64,000 nucleotides of DNA from an uncultured Planctomycetota bacterium (GCA_963737655.1 CAVTTN010000002.1:832001-896000), one strand, 5' to 3'. Positions 43,235-59,218 are shown, numbered from the stretch's first letter. A program made the numbers and translations. Notes: a model not told the origin generated them from the letters alone.

Positions 43235-45841
<2,607 letters not shown>

Positions 45842-46203
45842 GACTCGGGATGCCTCTCGCGAAGGGGGGCCCTTGGCCCCGTGCCGGGGCCGGGGAGGGT
45901 GAAGCTGGCCAGATTGTGGCGACAATGATGGCGGACTGCGGGGAATGGGGCAGTCGAATAGCAAATCAAGTGCCCTCTTGAAGACAAAAACGAAAATGAA
46001 CCCGACGACTCTGGCACGAGTCCCTGCGCATCGCCGGAGTCCGTGCTCGGGGCGTCGGCCGTCGGCGACCGGACGCATCCCTGTGGGAATGTTTCTTCCC
46101 AGCCACGCGGCCACGACGGGCGACGAGGTGTTCTCCCCGGCCGGATCTTGATAGCCTGGGTGGCCGTCGATTCCGAAGCCCAGACCCCAAAAGGATGCGA
46201 TCC

Positions 46204-50507: not shown

Positions 50508-50881
50508 CCCCATTCCCCTCGCCCAGAGCTCCGCCGGACCGTCTCGTCAAGACGGGGCGATTGTAGGGGCCTCACCGAATGCGGTCAAATCGCCGAGGCC
50601 GCCGCAAGGTATCGGCCGCGACGGTCTCGCGGGTTGAATCGGGACGGACGGGGATGGCGATTGGGCGGCCTTGTCCTGCTTGTCTTAAATATTCTTACGT
50701 GTAAATCATAAAGAGTCCGGACCCGGTCCGCGACCCGGCCCGGATTTTGCGGATTTTCGCGGGGGAGTTGGCCTTGCCACGGCCGATCACTCTTCTAGAA
50801 TCCCACGATCCCCTCGGGCCTTTCGGGCTTTCGCCCCGGCCCTCGCCTCCTTCACTTCCGACCGAAGGGTCAAGCAGAACG

Positions 50882-52322
50882 ATGGGCGACGCATCTCCGT
50901 CCTCCAGCCCCCTCGTCGTCATCCCGGGCCCGGAAGCCACGGATGCCGACGAGCCTCCCAGTCCCCGCGACGGCCGCCCCTCCTCCCCCCGTCACCCGAT
51001 CTGGGCCGACGTCCCCGACTCCGACTGGGACGACTGGCGATGGCAGTCCCAGAACGCCATCCGCAGCCCCCGGCAGCTCGCCGCGCTCCTCCCATTCTCG
51101 GTCGAGGAGCGGCGGGCCCTGGAGAGCCTGTCGGCCCAGTACAAGACGGCGATCCCGCCCTACTACTTCTCCCTGATCGACCCGCTCGAGCCCGCCGACC
51201 CGATCCGCCTCCAGTCCGTCCCCTCGATCCACGAGCTGGAAGGGCACGGCGAGGTCTCCGAAGACGACCCGCTCGACGAGGACAAGGACTCGCCCGTCCC
51301 CGGCCTGACCCACCGCTACCCCGACCGCGCCCTGCTCGTCACCACCCACGTCTGCACCATGTATTGCCGCTTCTGCACCCGGAAGCGCGCCACGATGAAG
51401 CGGGGCGGCTGGGACGCCGTCTCGCGAGACGATGAGCGCATGATCGAATACGTCCGCGATCACCCCGAGATCCGCGACGTGATCGTCTCCGGTGGCGACC
51501 CCCTGACGCTCCCGCTCGAGAAGCTCGAATTCTTCCTCAAGAGCCTCTCGGCGATCGACCACGTGGACGTGATCCGCGTCGGGACACGAGTGCCGGTGAC
51601 CCTGCCCCAGAGGCTCGACGACGACGACCTGATCGACGTCCTCTCGGCCGGCGACAAGGTCTGGGTCCAGACCCACTTCAACCACGCCCGGGAGGTCACG
51701 CCCGAGGCCGCCCGGGCGCGAAGCGGCTCCGCGCCGCCGGCCTGCCGATGAACAATCACGCCGTCCTGATGAAGGGCGTGAACGACTCGCTCGCCGACCA
51801 GCGAGACCTCTGCCGGGCCCTGCTGCGGATCAAGGTCCGGCCGTATTACCTCTTCCACTGCGACCCCGTGACCGGCGCCGGCCACTTCCGCACCAGCGTG
51901 TGGAAGGGGATGGAGATCATCGAGGGCCTGCGCGGGCACATGTCCGGCCTCGGCATCCCCACCTATGTGGTGGACGCCCCGAGAGGCGGCGGCAAGATCC
52001 CGATCATGCCCAGCTACCTGGTCTCGGCGGCCGAGGACGCGGTGGTCTTGCGCAATTATGAAGGAATGCTGGTCCGCTACAACCCGACCGGCGCCCCGCC
52101 GAGGAACGCCCTCCGGTGGCGACCCAGGGCGTCAGCGCCCTCCTCGAAGGCCAGGCCGAGGCGCTCGTCCCGGCCGACAACCCGAGGATGGCCCGCCGCA
52201 AGCCCGTCCCGCCCCTGGTCGAGGCGAAGAACGGCCGAAACGGCCACGCCAACGGGAACGGGAACGGCCACTCCAACGGCAACGGCAACGGCAACGGATA
52301 CTCGAACGGCCACGGACATTGA
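50882..52322 (+). CDS. kamA: KamA-family radical SAM/PLP 2,3-aminomutase (lysine 2,3-aminomutase-like); frameshifts ~51719 and 52094-52097
   Basis: WDDWRWQ, THRYPDR, CTMYCRFCTRKR, SGGDPL, HFNH, PYYLFHCD, VDAPRGGGK and C-terminal GVSALLEG..P..RMARRK. Confidence 0.88.
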
Positions 52323-52335
52323 GGCCCGCCCTGTC

Positions 52336-53364
52336 GTGAAGATCGGCATCGCCTTCAGCGTGAAACCGGACGCCGGGGCCGACGACGGCCCCGACGACCT
52401 CTTCGAGGAATTCGACCGGCCCGAGACCGTCGAGGCCATCGCCTCGGCGATCCGCGGCCTCGGGTTCGACGTGGACCTGCTCGGGGATGGCCGCGAATTC
52501 CTCGAACGCGTCCTGAGCGACCCGCCCGATTTCGTCTTCAATATCGCCGAGGGGCAGGGGGTCGGGCGATCGCGAGAGGCCAGGGTCCCCGCCGTCTGCG
52601 AGATGCTCGGAATCCCCTGTTCCGGCTCCGACCCGCTCACCCTGGCCGCGGCGCTCGACAAGGAGACCGCCCGGCTGATCGCCTCGGGCCGCGGCGTGAT
52701 CTGCCCCCGGGGGGTCTCGCTACCGATCGATACGTCTTCGGACATTTTGGAAAACCATGTCAACAAGTTGCTCGAGAATTCGCAAACCTTGATCCTCAAG
52801 CCCTCGCTGGAAGGGTCGAGCAAGGGGATTCGCGGCGACTGCCTGGCCCGTTCCCGCGCCGAGGCCGCCGAGTTGTTCCATCGCCTCGCCCGCGACTACC
52901 GGCAACCCATCCTCATCGAGGAATTCATCGACGGCGAGGAAGTGACCGTCGGCGTGGTGGGCAACGGCGAGCGCGTCGAGGTTCTCGGCACGATGCGAAT
53001 CCTCCCCAGGGACGCGGACGGCCCGTTCGTCTACTCGCTCGAAGTGAAGCGGGACTGGCTGCGACGAGTCCTGTACGAGGCCCCGGCGCGGCTTCCGGCA
53101 TCGGTCCTCGAACGCCTCGAAACGGCGGCCCGGCTCGCCTATTCGGCGATGGGCTGTCGCGACCTGGCGAGGATCGATTTCCGGCTGAAGGACGGCGTCC
53201 CGTTCTTCCTCGAAATCAACCCGCTGCCCGGCCTCGCGCCGGTCACCAGCGACCTGGTGATCCTCGCCGAAGGCTACGGGATCGGCCATCCCGAGCTGAT
53301 CGGCCGGGTCCTCTCGGCGGCCCTGGAGCGCGAGGGGCTGACCGAGGGGGCGAGGCGATCGTGA
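52336..53364 (+). CDS. D-Ala-D-Ala ligase-like ATP-grasp amide ligase 1
   Basis: FVFNIAEG, REARVP, SGSDP..LDK, KPSLEGSSKGI, EEFIDG, ARIDFR and LEINPLPGL. Own GTG start at 52336. Confidence 0.9.
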   Translation: MKIGIAFSVKPDAGADDGPDDLFEEFDRPETVEAIASAIRGLGFDVDLLGDGREFLERVLSDPPDFVFNIAEGQGVGRSREARVPAVCEMLGIPCSGSDPLTLAAALDKETARLIASGRGVICPRGVSLPIDTSSDILENHVNKLLENSQTLILKPSLEGSSKGIRGDCLARSRAEAAELFHRLARDYRQPILIEEFIDGEEVTVGVVGNGERVEVLGTMRILPRDADGPFVYSLEVKRDWLRRVLYEAPARLPASVLERLETAARLAYSAMGCRDLARIDFRLKDGVPFFLEINPLPGLAPVTSDLVILAEGYGIGHPELIGRVLSAALEREGLTEGARRS

Positions 53365-54377
53365 GCCGCCGCCGACCCAGGGCCGCGGTCCTCTTCAACG
53401 CGCCGACCCTCCCTCGCGATCACCCCGAATTCGCCTCCGAAAGCGGGGTCGTCGCGGCGGCTCGGGCCGTGATCTCCGCCCTGAAATCGCGGGGCTTCAA
53501 GGCGTTCCCGGTCGCCGCCCGACCGCCGGTCGCCAGGCTGGTCCGCAGCCTCGCGAAACGCGGGCCGGACGTCGTGTTCAACCTCATCGAGGGATTCGGC
53601 GGCCTGAGCGGGGGCGAAGCACGGATCACGTCCTTACTCGAACTCATGAATCTGCCTTACACCGGCTGCCCGCCCGAGGCCCAGGCGCTCGGGCGATCGA
53701 AGTCGAGCACGAAAGCCCTCCTGATCGGCTCGGGCCTGCCGACCGCCCCGTTCTGGAGCGTCGCTCCGGGCGATCGTCTGCCGCTCGCCCCCTGGCCCGG
53801 CACGGTGATCGTCAAGCCGGAGTCCGAAGACGCCAGCCTCGGCATCGACCAGGAGAGCGTCGTCGATTCGCCCGAGAAGCTGGAGGCGCAGGTCGAGCGT
53901 CTTCGAGTCGCCCACGGCCCGAGAGTCCTGATCGAGTCGTACTTGCCCGGCCCCGAGTACAACGTCGGCGTCCTGGCCATGCCCCAGCCCGAAGCCTTGC
54001 CACCGGCCGAAGTCGCCTACCAGCCCCGCGAAGGCTGGTGGCCGATCCTCTCGTACGAGGCGAAATGGCACATCGGATCGGAGGCCGACCTCGTGAGCCC
54101 GGTCGTCTGCCCGGCCGCGATCGACGCGAGTCTTGCCGCTCGGCTAGGGTCGCTCGCGCGATCGGCCTTCCTCGCGTGCTCCTGTCGCGATTATGCTCGG
54201 GTGGATTTCCGCCTGGACGCGAAGGGCGATCCCATGATCCTCGAACTCAACCCGAACCCCGACCTCGACCCGTCCGCCGGCCTCGCCCGGGCGATCGCCG
54301 CCAGCGGCCGGGACTGGGGCGACGTGATCGCCGGGCTCGCCCTCCAGGCGATCGAGCGAGGCCCCCGCCGTGACTGA
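53361..54377 (+). CDS. D-Ala-D-Ala ligase-like ATP-grasp amide ligase 2
   Basis: VFNLIEG, PYTGC, KPESEDASLGI, ESYLPG, ARVDFR and LELNPNPDL; GTGA overlap. Confidence 0.9.
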   Translation: MSRRRPRAAVLFNAPTLPRDHPEFASESGVVAAARAVISALKSRGFKAFPVAARPPVARLVRSLAKRGPDVVFNLIEGFGGLSGGEARITSLLELMNLPYTGCPPEAQALGRSKSSTKALLIGSGLPTAPFWSVAPGDRLPLAPWPGTVIVKPESEDASLGIDQESVVDSPEKLEAQVERLRVAHGPRVLIESYLPGPEYNVGVLAMPQPEALPPAEVAYQPREGWWPILSYEAKWHIGSEADLVSPVVCPAAIDASLAARLGSLARSAFLACSCRDYARVDFRLDAKGDPMILELNPNPDLDPSAGLARAIAASGRDWGDVIAGLALQAIERGPRRD

Positions 54378-54852
54378 CCTCGGGCTCCGAGACACGCTCC
54401 AGGCTTCCGACCGCGAGCCGATCGCCCGAATCCTCCGAGAATCGGGGGCCTTTCGCGGCGAGGAGATCGCCGTCGGCCTGGAACTCATCGACGAGACCTT
54501 GAATCCCCGACCCGACACCGATTACTCATGGATTTTGGCCGAACATCAAGGCAAGCTCCTCGGATTCGCCTGCTTCGGGCCCGTGCCGATGACCGTCGGG
54601 ACGTTCGACCTCTACTGGATCGCCGTCGATCGCGATCAAAAAGGGCAGGGGGTCGCCGCCCGGCTCGACGACGCGGTGACCCAGGCCGTCCGGTCGCAAG
54701 GAGGCCGATGGGTGCTGGCCGAGACCTCCTCGACCGACCCGTATACCGCCGCGCACCGCTTCTATCAGAAGCAAGGCTATACGCTCGTCGAACGAATCCC
54801 CGACTTCTACCGAGACGGTGACGACCGCCTCACGTTCGGCAAACGCCTGTAG
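54370..54852 (+). CDS. GNAT family N-acetyltransferase
   Basis: GFACFGP, DLYWIAV, motif A QKGQGVA, ETSS, FYQKQGY and DFYRDGDD. Confidence 0.92.
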   Translation: MTDLGLRDTLQASDREPIARILRESGAFRGEEIAVGLELIDETLNPRPDTDYSWILAEHQGKLLGFACFGPVPMTVGTFDLYWIAVDRDQKGQGVAARLDDAVTQAVRSQGGRWVLAETSSTDPYTAAHRFYQKQGYTLVERIPDFYRDGDDRLTFGKRL

Positions 54853-54941
54853 TGTGCATGAAATGCACCAAACCGGCGGCGGCCGAAGGCCGCCCACAAA
54901 ACCCCGGCCACCCCACGAAACCGGCAAGAAATCAGGCCACC

Positions 54942-56702
54942 ATGTTCCGAATCAGCCACGTGATCGGCACCCACCGCGAGCAGGACCGCCGGAGCCTCGC
55001 CGACATCGCCGAGCCTCTTCCACCAGGCGTTCCCCGATCAGTCCGACGACCCGGACTACATCGAGAGGAAACTCGTCGACCAGACCGCTCGCGGTTACCC
55101 GTGCATCCTGCTCGCCGCTCACGGGCCCGGCGATCGCGTGGTCGGGTTCGCGCTGGCCGACTTCTACGAGACGATCGGCTACGCCTATCTCGATTTCCTG
55201 ATCACCGGCGCCGACCAGAGGGGCCGGGGCCTCGGCGGTGCCCTGTTCGAAGCCTTGCGCGAGGAGTTGACGGCGCGAGGGCGCTCGGCCTGTTCCTCGA
55301 AATCCCCACCGACGACCCCTCGCAGGTCAAGACGGCCGAGGACCTGCGCGCCAACAAGGCCCGCCTGCGGTTTTACGAGCGATACGGGGCCCGATGCGTC
55401 CTGAACACGCTGTACGACCAGCCGATCCGACCCGGGAAGCCGCCCGAGCCGAGGCTCCTGTACGACCCCCTCGACAATACCGGGCCCCTGGAGGCCGACG
55501 AGCTCCGCCGCGTGATCGGCGCGATCCTGACGCTCCGCTACCACTACGACCCGCAGGACCCCTACGTCAAGCGGGTGCTCGCCTCGGTGAAGGAGTCGCC
55601 CGTCCAGCTTCGGGCCCCCTTGGCCCCGACGGCGAACGGCAACCATCGGAAGATCCCCCGGCGCCTTCATCCGTTGAAGGTGTTCTGCTCGGCGCATCAC
55701 GCGCTCCATCACGTCCGCGAACGCGGATACGTCGAGAGGCCCGCGCGCGTCGACGTGATCCTCAAGGCCCTCGACGCCCTGCCCGACGTCGAGAAGCTGC
55801 CGGTCCGCAATTTCGGAGAGGGGCCGATCCGCGCCGTCCACGACGCCGATTTCGTCAATTACCTCAAAAATGCCTGCCTGGAGCTTCCCAAGGGGGAGTT
55901 GCTCTATCCCTACGTCTTCCCGATCCGCCGGCCCGACCGGCCTCCTCACGACAAGGGATACCGAGCCGGCTATTATTGCATCGATACGTTCACGCCGTTG
56001 AGCCGGGATGCGTACAAGGCGGCGAGGTCGGCGGTGAACGTGGCGCTCTCGGGCGCGGCGGCCGTCCTGAAGGGCGAACCGCTCGTGTACAGCCTCTGCC
56101 GGCCTCCGGGGCACCACGCCGAGCGCGACACCTATGGCGGGTTCTGCTACTTCTGCAACGGGGCGATCGCCGCGCAGTACCTGGCCAGGAGCGTGGGCAA
56201 GGTGGCCATCCTGGACGTCGATTACCACCACGGCAACGGCCAGCAAGATATCTTCTTCGATCGATCGGACATCCTGACGGTCTCGATCCACGGCCACCCC
56301 AGCTTCGCCTACCCGTTCTTCGCCGGGTTCGCCGACGAACGGGGCGAAGGGGCCGGCCTCGGCTACAACCACAACTTCCCTCTGGCCGAGCACGTCGGCG
56401 ATTCTCGCTATCTGGAGGCCCTGGACGACGCCCTGAAGGTCGTCCGCGAGTTCAAGCCCGAGGCGCTAGTGGTCTCGCTCGGGCTGGACATCGCCAAGGC
56501 CGACCCCACGGGGAGCTGGAGCCTCTCGGCCGACGGCCTGTTCGAGGTCGGCCGCCGGATCGGAAGCCAGAAGCTGCCCACTTTGATGGTCCAAGAAGGC
56601 GGCTACAACATCCGATCGCTCGGCAGGAACGCCGCGAGCCTGCTCAGCGGAGTCTGCGCCGGAGCCTTGAACCGCAAGAGGGCGCGGAAGCGAACGACCT
56701 GA
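54942..56702 (+). CDS. GNAT + histone deacetylase/acetylpolyamine amidohydrolase fusion; compensating frameshifts ~55013 and ~55280
   Basis: Reconstructed N-terminus VVGFALADF..YLDFL..QRGRGLGG..GLFLE..RFYERYG. C-terminal RPPGHHA, GGFCY, LDVDYHHGNG, SIHG, SLGLD..ADP and QEGGY. Confidence 0.88.
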   Translation: MFRISHVIGTHREQDRRSLADIAEPLPPGVPRSVRRPGLHREETRRPDRSRLPVHPARRSRARRSRGRVRAGRLLRDDRLRLSRFPDHRRRPEGPGPRRCPVRSLARGVDGARALGLFLEIPTDDPSQVKTAEDLRANKARLRFYERYGARCVLNTLYDQPIRPGKPPEPRLLYDPLDNTGPLEADELRRVIGAILTLRYHYDPQDPYVKRVLASVKESPVQLRAPLAPTANGNHRKIPRRLHPLKVFCSAHHALHHVRERGYVERPARVDVILKALDALPDVEKLPVRNFGEGPIRAVHDADFVNYLKNACLELPKGELLYPYVFPIRRPDRPPHDKGYRAGYYCIDTFTPLSRDAYKAARSAVNVALSGAAAVLKGEPLVYSLCRPPGHHAERDTYGGFCYFCNGAIAAQYLARSVGKVAILDVDYHHGNGQQDIFFDRSDILTVSIHGHPSFAYPFFAGFADERGEGAGLGYNHNFPLAEHVGDSRYLEALDDALKVVREFKPEALVVSLGLDIAKADPTGSWSLSADGLFEVGRRIGSQKLPTLMVQEGGYNIRSLGRNAASLLSGVCAGALNRKRARKRTT

Positions 56703-58475: not shown

Positions 58476-59039
58476 CTACTTCACCCGTTCGACGTACTCG
58501 CCGGTCCGGGTGTCGATGCGGATCTTCTCGCCGGGGCCGATGAACGGGGGGACCTGGACCTTCAGGCCGGTTTCGAGCGTGGCATCCTTGTACTGGTTGG
58601 TCGCCGTGGCGCCCTTGATCGACGGCGGCGTGTCGGTGACGACCAGGTCGATCGAGGCGGGGATTTCGATCGACGCGGGCTTGTCGTCGATGTACTTGAC
58701 CATCACCTTCGTGTTGGGCAAAAGGTACTGCATCGACCCGGCGACGAATTCGTTGGCGAAGGAGAGCTGGTCGAAGGTCTCGGTGTCCATGAAGACGTGT
58801 TCGTCTCCCTGGGAATACAGGTATTCGTATTCCTTGGACTCGACGAACGGCACCTCGATCTGCTCGTCGGAGCGGAACCGCTTCTCGTTCGTGGAGCCGC
58901 TGCTCATGTTGCGGAGCTTGGCCTGGACGAACGCACGGAGGTTGCCGGGGGTGCGGTGGGCGAAGTCCATCACCACGTAGTTCACGTTGTCCATCGTGAT
59001 GATCATGCCGCGACGGATATCGGACGCCTTGATGTTCAT
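58476..59039 (-). CDS. efp: Elongation factor P (PGNLR-loop variant)
   Basis: KASDIRRG, HRTPGNLRAFVQ, YLY, FMDTETFDQ, KGATAT, LETG..VPPFI and IDTRTGEYVER. Confidence 0.95.
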   Translation of the reverse strand: MNIKASDIRRGMIITMDNVNYVVMDFAHRTPGNLRAFVQAKLRNMSSGSTNEKRFRSDEQIEVPFVESKEYEYLYSQGDEHVFMDTETFDQLSFANEFVAGSMQYLLPNTKVMVKYIDDKPASIEIPASIDLVVTDTPPSIKGATATNQYKDATLETGLKVQVPPFIGPGEKIRIDTRTGEYVERVK

Positions 59040-59218
59040 GGGAACCTTGAAACCCCCGGAAAAGTGGCCGCCCTGCCACGGGGACGCGGCGGCCACCGGC
59101 CTCGCGACCCGGAATTGCCTGTGACGAACAGGGTAACTCAGCCGGACCGTCGCGACCAGACCACTTGGCAGTGGTCAGTTGTCAGTCGGGGAGTCGTCGG
59201 TGGGCCGGCCTCCTTCGT

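Follow-up and report, generated by a model that had tools for sequence, protein, structure and literature searches.

Introduction

A KamA-type aminomutase and an acetyltransferase of the GNAT family form a known osmolyte pair, AblA and AblB (TIGR03820, TIGR03827). A larger cluster that recalls this pair is described here at positions 50882-56702 of a 64,000-nucleotide stretch of DNA (the window) from an uncultured Planctomycetota bacterium (GCA_963737655.1, CAVTTN010000002.1:832001-896000). The window sits on the 7.6-Mb main contig of a source assembly that has 3 contigs and is 87.7% complete. The cluster shares with AblA/AblB the KamA-type aminomutase with its lysine-binding residues and the GNAT. 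However, its KamA falls below the AblA cut-off and is without the zinc domain, its GNAT of 160 amino acids has no AblB match, and there are two ATP-grasp ligases and also an accessory deacetylase in addition.

A 'D-Ala-D-Ala ligase 3' operon of Nostoc, as presented in the excerpted text of PMC5987646, combines a lysine 2,3-aminomutase (LAM), a SET methyltransferase and one non-canonical Ddl. Its authors propose there, as an untested idea, that methylated beta-lysine is transferred to an unknown acceptor, and the shinorine ligase is also mentioned. Compared with this text by gene content, the two arrangements are similar in that a non-canonical Ddl-like ligase is the neighbour of a lysine 2,3-aminomutase. 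However, LAM-SET-Ddl3 has one ligase and methylation, while two ligases and acetylation with deacetylation are found here. No SET domain was detected in the window cluster or in 74 flanking open reading frames (ORFs).

In the EpmA/EpmB system a KamA-family enzyme likewise supplies beta-lysine to a ligase. The present ligases are of the ATP-grasp and not of the synthetase-like kind, the KamA relative scores 224.6 on the EpmB model against a cut-off of 369.3, and the elongation factor P (EF-P) of this genome has no lysine at its tip. The synthesis of N-acetylglutaminylglutamine amide (NAGGN) is a small-amide pathway that uses a GNAT and an ATP-grasp enzyme, and MysD-type enzymes are re-used Ddl folds. 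The present module has in common with these the order of acetylating and then ligating, and a Ddl fold put to new use in making a solute; this is a resemblance of logic only, the substrates being others and an aminomutase being absent there. Judged from its sequences, the module would work like AblA/AblB with two ligases added, yet it belongs to none of the AblA/AblB, Ddl and EpmA/EpmB families.

The openly searchable literature (subscription journals and bioRxiv supplements lie outside that scope) yielded no description of the module, and within the same literature the initial annotation was right that no product has been characterised. Four sources were set aside, each as far as its excerpted text goes: a bioRxiv manuscript that places Myxococcus MXAN_4699 in a two-aminomutase operon (10.64898/2026.05.15.725110), a paper on Bacillus kamA (PMC12361552), lists of drug targets (PMC6701809) and a paper whose excerpt mentions neither ddl, D-alanine nor murF (PMC10632474).

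The cluster represents a real, conserved and uncharacterised pathway, assembled from known enzyme families. The reading that we prefer, at a probability of roughly 55%, is a cytoplasmic route, independent of nonribosomal peptide synthetases (NRPS), to a small intracellular N-acetylated amide of beta-lysine (an oligoamide of two or three units), which would serve inside the cell as a compatible solute, a polyamine-like cation or a nitrogen store. Confidence in any exact structure of the product is low. The novelty has its limits, as the families are known throughout, the product is deduced, a similar idea for Nostoc is in print and the present copy is frameshifted in the assembly.

Organization and conservation of the gene set

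The cluster consists of the following genes.

50882-52322, + strand: kamA, a KamA-family radical-SAM/pyridoxal phosphate (PLP) aminomutase (Radical_SAM and LAM_C), with two single-base frameshifts
52336-53364, + strand: ligase 1, an ATP-grasp enzyme of the Ddl fold, its substrate site rebuilt and acidic (Dala_Dala_lig_C, PF07478)
53361-54377, + strand: ligase 2, a second Ddl-fold ATP-grasp enzyme with a differently rebuilt site (Dala_Dala_lig_C, PF07478)
54370-54852, + strand: small GNAT of 160 amino acids (Acetyltransf_1, PF00583)
54942-56702, + strand: accessory GNAT-deacetylase fusion (Acetyltransf_1, PF00583, and Hist_deacetyl, PF00850), with two single-base frameshifts

These five genes, all in the same orientation, fill the interval 50882-56702, and they are joined in order by a 13-nt gap, a 4-nt overlap, an 8-nt overlap and an 89-nt gap. 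The initial annotation had reported the same five co-oriented genes and the same spacings, and both are confirmed by the ORFs and the domain matches.

A scan of a species-level genome collection with ligase 1 gave at least 344 confirmed relatives, and the best 80 loci were analysed. Many of these lie on short contigs, and the counts refer to genes within the DNA around each locus. Next to ligase 1, kamA is found at 71 loci, ligase 2 at 69 and the small GNAT at 52, while the GNAT-deacetylase fusion is found at 7 and cysE at none. All four core genes are present together at 49 of the 80 loci, an arrangement far beyond chance; among the 49 loci that are long enough on both sides, 34 hold all four. 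The loci with the complete set are titled Planctomycetota, Chloroflexota, Acidobacteriota, Synergistaceae and Deferrimicrobiaceae, and incomplete sets are found in WOR-3, Omnitrophota, Margulisiibacteriota and Ozemobacteraceae.

The order of the genes is permuted among loci, and the set is retained. KamA is fused to ligase 1 at one of the 80 loci, and ligase 2 to the GNAT at two. One genome has the set split, with kamA and ligase 1 (L112) apart from ligase 2 (L113). The first fusion and the split suggest that KamA is paired with ligase 1, and the other two fusions that the GNAT is paired with ligase 2. At 20 more distant planctomycete loci, selected from 70 ligase 1 sites in a sample of 300 genomes, kamA is present at 17, a second ligase at 18, the GNAT at 14 and the fusion at 4, in several gene orders, with the GNAT-deacetylase gene inserted within the module.

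The same sample of 300 planctomycete genomes, each at least 90% complete, was used for co-occurrence; these genomes are related by descent, and the counts of genomes and loci are descriptive and not independent. Ligase 1 is present in 60 of the genomes. A KamA match is found in 54 of these 60, compared with 22 of the 240 others. The small GNAT occurs in 54 genomes, 51 with ligase 1 and only 3 without (counted by hand), and in each of five genomes whose module locus is without the GNAT it is found elsewhere in the genome. The fusion occurs in 17 genomes, of which 15 have ligase 1, and in 8 genomes the two lie within a few kb of each other. KamA, ligase 1, ligase 2 and the small GNAT are a conserved four-gene core, and the fusion is a dependent accessory. 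The synteny search called for by the initial annotation thus supports its claim of co-conservation, but for four genes and not for a pathway of five.

The four-gene set, with no known product, is found in about one fifth of the planctomycete genomes of the sample and also in several further phyla, and it is retained in Chloroflexota whose genomes are small (1.3-2.4 Mb). The ligase 1 homologues that carry an organism name, with 59-61% identity, belong to Singulisphaera, Tundrisphaera and other Isosphaeraceae, which suggests that the source is a planctomycete related to them. Cultured carriers exist among these (Singulisphaera and Tundrisphaera) and the enzymes are small and predicted to be cytoplasmic, which brings the product within experimental reach.

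The aminomutase

The first piece of kamA alone scores 215.5 bits on TIGR00238, above the cut-off of 199.2, and an intact relative scores 309. The CxxxCxxC motif and the PLP lysine motif can both be read in the frames of the window, which places the protein in the KamA family. An intact relative aligns to lysine 2,3-aminomutase (PDB code 2A5H) with an E value of 2.6e-118. The residues D293, D330 and K337 are found in all 64 relatives compared, and the three cluster cysteines and R134 in 63 of the 64; we take R134, D293 and D330 to be the lysine-binding residues. On the subfamily models the intact relative L022 scores 455.2 bits for lysine, 403.6 for glutamate and 347.9 for arginine, and the last two values lie below the cut-offs of 650 and 600 (TIGR04368 and TIGR04468). 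The module KamA is predicted to be most like lysine 2,3-aminomutase. This is in agreement with the initial assignment, the family cut-off being passed and the lysine-binding residues retained.

A low-complexity tail of Asn-Gly/His (NGNGNGH repeats, window 52230-52319) ends the protein and is also found in L022.

The two ligases

Both ligases are similar to the Ddl/Van ligases in fold and in the residues that hold ATP and Mg. The model of ligase 1 has a predicted local distance difference test (pLDDT) value of 95.7, and its best Foldseek matches are Ddl structures (TM-score 0.73); that of ligase 2 has a pLDDT of 93.1 and again the Ddl fold (best match TM-score 0.76). The residues K97, K144, E180, E187, K215, R255, D257, E270 and N272 are retained almost throughout both families, so that each is an ATP-grasp fold with its K, K, D and ExN catalytic residues. 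They correspond to the ATP-grasp catalytic set given in the excerpted text of PMC4431377.

However, the two proteins differ from the Ddl/Van ligases in other respects. They form a paralogous pair outside any context of wall synthesis, with about 27% identity between them and of each to E. coli DdlB. All scores are below the cut-offs: on TIGR01205 ligase 1 reaches 105.5 and ligase 2 117.6 (cut-off 245.65), and on NF002378 they reach 127.4 and 132.9 (cut-off 243).

The substrate subsites, which we take to be DdlB positions 15, 18, 63, 216, 276 and 282, are rebuilt, and neither ligase has the D-alanine subsite residues of DdlB. Ligase 1 retains E15 and has the substitutions V18D, H63E and L282D in 78-79 of 79 rows. 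In ligase 2, E15 is mostly replaced by A or S, while H63E (67/67), G149D (65/67), Y216W (67/67) and G276D (64/67) are nearly constant; V18 is often G, which together with L282G gives smaller residues at both subsites. The omega-loop part of this alignment is approximate. The acidic pocket of ligase 1 may suit a diamine such as beta-lysine.

Prediction of a complex between ligases 1 and 2 gives a score of 0.54, compared with 0.00 for the best control. This mark is reached by 116 of 157 solved complexes and by 2 of 215 mismatches; among those that reach it with scores of 0.60 or less there are only 18 solved complexes and both of the mismatches. At least 87% of the contacts are shared between the runs, and the partner pLDDT is at least 83. 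This is a weak indication of a heterodimer, and the passing score could be explained by the solved Ddl dimers.

A role in peptidoglycan could be supposed, in which D-Ala-D-Ala, or another dipeptide that takes its terminal place, is made by one of the ligases or by both. The fold would allow it, and in this genome, where no Ddl over the cut-off was found, ligases 1 and 2 give the best matches to Ddl; for the related Nostoc cluster a modification of the wall was suggested by its authors, in the excerpted text of PMC5987646. However, the TIGR01205 scores are below half of the cut-off and the D-alanine sites are rebuilt, which supports the initial annotation in that these are not ordinary D-Ala-D-Ala enzymes. 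In addition, the genome (87.7% complete) gave no alr match and no MurF over the cut-off, and queries with E. coli MraY, MurC, MurD, MurG, FtsW and FtsI at 1e-5 gave no match in it, while lpxC and rsmH were found. MurF over the cut-off is likewise found in none of five Chloroflexota genomes with the module. This explanation appears highly improbable. Peptidoglycan synthesis in this genome may be absent, very divergent or unassembled. The only partial MurE/MurF-like match in the genome is at C2:5211672.

Such ligases are routinely annotated as D-Ala-D-Ala ligase, so that peptidoglycan genes can be claimed too often for lineages in which they seem to be absent.

A third non-canonical Ddl-like gene is found at C2:1072474-1073412 (L135:6433-7419). 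Its product is 33% identical to ligase 2 and scores 110.7 bits against the cut-off of 245.65. A weak Peptidase_Mx match lies just upstream, on a scanned frame of the opposite strand. This gene looks like a separate orphan ATP-grasp module.

The small GNAT and the GNAT-deacetylase

The closest solved relative of the small GNAT is PDB 2R7H (E 1.7e-27), which was deposited as a putative D-alanine N-acetyltransferase. The AblB model TIGR03827 has no match in the small GNAT or in the genome (0/1; the control is over the cut-off in 2/14), so the GNAT is not AblB. This bears on a simple explanation of the cluster, namely that KamA and the GNAT make N-epsilon-acetyl-beta-lysine in the manner of AblA/AblB and that the ligases are unrelated neighbours. 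The existence of that osmolyte pair counts in its favour. However, besides the missing AblB match, the ligases lie between kamA and the GNAT, are fused to both and co-occur with both, and we consider this explanation very doubtful.

The fifth protein contains both of its domains in the pieces of the window and in an intact relative of 585 amino acids. Its deacetylase half has the acetylpolyamine amidohydrolases (PDB codes 6PHR, 3MEN and 3Q9B) as closest solved relatives, with an E value of 7.4e-75 for 6PHR. The motifs PPGHHA, D-x-DYHHGNG, D-x-x-x-x-D and EGGY are present, and with them the zinc ligands, the His pair and the catalytic Tyr that place it among these enzymes. It differs from them in the fused N-terminal GNAT and in being found almost only in module genomes (15/17), and the residues at its mouth differ from those of 6PHR (CIDTFT compared with LGADT). 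The two GNATs of the cluster are only remotely alike, with a best E value of 0.006. The fusion is predicted to combine a second GNAT with a zinc deacetylase of the acetylpolyamine amidohydrolase type. The ESM Atlas returned generic family names only. Since the fusion is found at only 7 of the 80 loci, switching an acetyl group on and off cannot be essential to the pathway, and the toggle of acetylation and deacetylation that the initial annotation made part of it is not retained as such.

Proposed pathway

The following sequence of steps is proposed. KamA would convert L-lysine to beta-lysine, as its family function and residues indicate. Ligase 1 would then activate beta-lysine as an acyl phosphate and join it to an amine, which could be that of another lysine or beta-lysine or that of a polyamine. 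The small GNAT would acetylate an amine, and ligase 2 would add an N-acetylated unit or extend a capped product; an N-acetylated donor is proposed since ligase 2 is without E15, the glutamate that holds the free amine of the donor. The two ligases might act as a heterodimer, for which the indication is weak. In an accessory step, the GNAT-deacetylase may add or remove the acetyl group, either on the product or on one of its precursors. If this is true, a ligase able to use beta-amino acids would be a useful catalyst.

Several points weigh against this pathway. The product and the substrates are deduced from the genes, whose expression is presumed, and the substrate roles given to DdlB positions 15, 18, 63, 216, 276 and 282 are presumed from general knowledge of the enzyme. 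The gene set itself is not constant: kamA is missing from 9 of the 80 loci and the GNAT from 28 (many of the contigs are short), 6 of the 60 ligase 1 genomes are without KamA at the threshold used, 45 of the 60 are without the fusion, and kinship among the genomes makes all these counts non-independent. KamA raises a further difficulty. With 455.2 bits, L022 remains below the AblA cut-off of 525.4 (TIGR03820), and the structural zinc site is absent from the module KamA. In addition, two genomes (G196 and G228) hold, besides a module KamA of about 500 bits, a canonical AblA of 773 bits that lies on another contig. Taken together, these three observations mean that the substrate of KamA could differ from free lysine.

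The same logic might start with arginine, with ornithine or with a lysine that is already ligated, and give a different beta-amino acid product. On positions 1-365 of TIGR03820 the module KamA proteins occupy a score band of their own, at about 420-515 bits, compared with about 730-780 for most full-length AblA. Zinc position 268 (C in 2A5H) is S, T, D or N as the four commonest states (59/64), and the C-terminal zinc cysteines of 2A5H are absent from the aligned KamA relative. The proteins also vary at H131 in 14 of 64 relatives and at the Q preceding C292-D293 in 17. These features, like the coexistence with AblA, are consistent with another substrate. However, the lysine model outscores the arginine and glutamate models, and D293 and D330 are invariant, while glutamate aminomutases replace the equivalents of these two residues. 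A start from another amino acid is considered unlikely.

A different possibility is that the module decorates a macromolecule or cofactor (the side chain or terminus of a protein, a lipid or a glycan) with beta-lysyl or acetyl-beta-lysyl groups, the fusion writing and erasing the acetyl mark. Retention in the small Chloroflexota genomes suggests a housekeeping role, the smaller residues at the ligase 2 subsites could admit a large partner, and ATP-grasp relatives are known to modify proteins (excerpted text of PMC4431377). However, no target gene is recurrent beside the module, the fold of the ligases is nearest to small-molecule Ddl enzymes and the deacetylase is nearest to polyamine enzymes.

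EF-P, the acceptor in the EpmA/EpmB system, is excluded here. The two EF-P-like proteins of the genome have a TPGN tip, without lysine or arginine (window 58476-59096, - strand), and a PSARG tip (C2:6549155-6549709), and the same pair is found in a genome of the same family; the PSARG paralogue is presumably EfpL-like. EpmA over the cut-off was found in none of five genomes examined, and the EpmB score of KamA is below its cut-off as well. The efp gene at 58476-59096 was tried as a target of the module and rejected, as neither EF-P tip has a lysine. The variants of the initial annotation in which beta-lysine is placed on the cell envelope or on a protein are thus disfavoured for peptidoglycan, whose wall enzymes were not found, and for EF-P. 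Decoration of some other macromolecule is rather improbable, though less so than a start from another amino acid.

In one Chloroflexota carrier a PGKG-tip efp directly precedes a frame of 322 amino acids similar to EpmA/GenX (G334:C12:560965-562424; 261.5 bits, cut-off 286.9), and the module KamA of that genome might also feed EF-P modification.

A bolder form of the preferred route to a beta-lysine amide can be offered tentatively. The duplicated Ddl pair might be a two-step heterodimeric line that makes a widespread class of beta-lysine oligoamides or beta-lysyl-polyamines (or places it on a macromolecule), with the charge switched by the writer-eraser fusion. Such a class, new to science, would belong to the basic metabolism of planctomycetes, Dehalococcoidia, acidobacteria and further lineages with few cultured members, and the annotation 'D-alanine-D-alanine ligase' would have hidden it so far.

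Flanking genes

Only lineage-local neighbours, and no further conserved partner of the module, emerged when 2,243 ORFs were clustered and 74 of 145 selected flanking ORFs were scanned with Pfam. Among the 74 ORFs scanned there is no recurrent exporter, NRPS or resistance family; the transporters found are MarC in three cases and an MFS pump in one. The lack of a conserved exporter among these ORFs suggests that the product is probably intracellular. This also bears on the idea of a secreted antibiotic or signal containing beta-lysine (similar to negamycin, bellenamine or TAN-1057), in which acetylation would be self-protection. Beta-lysine is common in antibiotics, and a pair of acetyltransferase and deacetylase fits the logic of a prodrug. 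The related LAM-SET-Ddl3 cluster of Nostoc lies near a MATE pump, according to the excerpt of PMC5987646. However, no transporter family is conserved in the 74 flanking ORFs, ligase 1 has no match in a plasmid collection at 1e-30, and the module is common in lineages with small genomes; a secreted product is considered very unlikely. The plasmid collection gave three weak GNAT matches, one of them annotated and outside any module and one without annotation.

At three Dehalococcoidia loci (L029, L044, L047) the small GNAT is followed by MarC, which at two of them precedes the GNAT-deacetylase, and DUF3109 flanks the module in three loci of different groups (L046, L077, L089). Both are possible minor accessories. 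Two further arrangements were seen in mechanical ORF calls. An ORF of 356-404 amino acids without a Pfam match stands between kamA and ligase 1 at two loci with WOR-3 and Hydrothermus titles (L083:6787-7998 and L087:6783-7850). At two others (L086:9021-10957 and L097:2276-4211) an ORF of about 330 amino acids and an LD-carboxypeptidase (S66) follow ligase 1 and replace ligase 2.

Intactness of the present copy

Alignment to relatives locates two single-base losses in kamA, at about 51717-51722 and 52095-52105, and in the GNAT-deacetylase gene a gained base at about 55008-55014 and a lost one at about 55277-55281. The two kamA frameshifts had been noticed in the initial annotation, while the two breaks in the fifth gene had been missed. 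It is probable that all four are assembly errors and that the copy is intact in the living cell. Every one is a single-base change in or beside a short G/C run, the coding frames flanking each break have no in-frame stop, and the pieces have 76-91% identity to L022 and L104, the two intact relatives that stand closest. Breaks of the same kind are found elsewhere in the genome: rpoA and rpoC, which are essential, are frame-broken as well (2 of 32 housekeeping genes, with a ddlB row left out that combined two different genes), as are 15 of 108 same-genus orthologs outside the cluster, which corresponds to 15 in 120.7 kb or 0.12 per kb.

It is a separate question whether the operon copy has recently died, the frameshifts in kamA and in the GNAT-deacetylase gene being real. 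The initial annotation had named this, for kamA, as an outcome that would speak against a working cluster. Four frameshifts in about 5.3 kb, in two of the five genes, exceed the background of the assembly with a Poisson p of 0.005, or about 0.025 (by hand) if only the three frameshifts found by the method used for the background are counted. This excess counts against an intact pathway in this genome. However, the position of the indels, the state of rpoA, rpoC and the 15 orthologs, and the stop-free frames close to L022 and L104 favour assembly error, and a dead copy appears less probable, if by no means negligible.

The close relatives L022, L104, L105 and L108 have all five genes, in order. 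The five ORFs are intact in L022, while the ligase 1 match is split in L108 and part of kamA is without a match in L105. A contig of the same strain was not found in the metagenome collection with a 39-base pattern from ligase 1.

Upstream region and other genes of the window

The features next to the cluster are the following.

50680-50712, no strand: AT-rich spacer upstream of the cluster, 79% AT
50774-50801, + strand: candidate sigma-70-like promoter, with 10 of 12 consensus positions matched
50513-49560, - strand: cysE-like gene, the upstream neighbour, divergent from the cluster

The GC content is mostly 65-71% across the window, in contrast to the spacer, which had been correctly noted as AT-rich. 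In this region three sigma-70-like matches are seen compared with 0.3 expected, and the one at 50774-50801 may be the promoter of the cluster.

The divergent cysE reported in the initial annotation is present as a local arrangement. In four of five stretches from the same family cysE lies 3-4 kb downstream of the cluster, so that this genome has a local rearrangement, and in one further close relative an ArgE/DapE gene is upstream. As a member of the system cysE was rejected, since it is found at none of the 80 distant loci and is mostly downstream in the same-family stretches. Both cysE and efp are neighbours of the cluster at the level of the family.

Elsewhere in the window, an ORF of 959 amino acids (43235-46114, - strand) contains beta-propeller-like repeats, a glycine linker and FG-GAP-like repeats, and is probably a secreted planctomycete surface protein.

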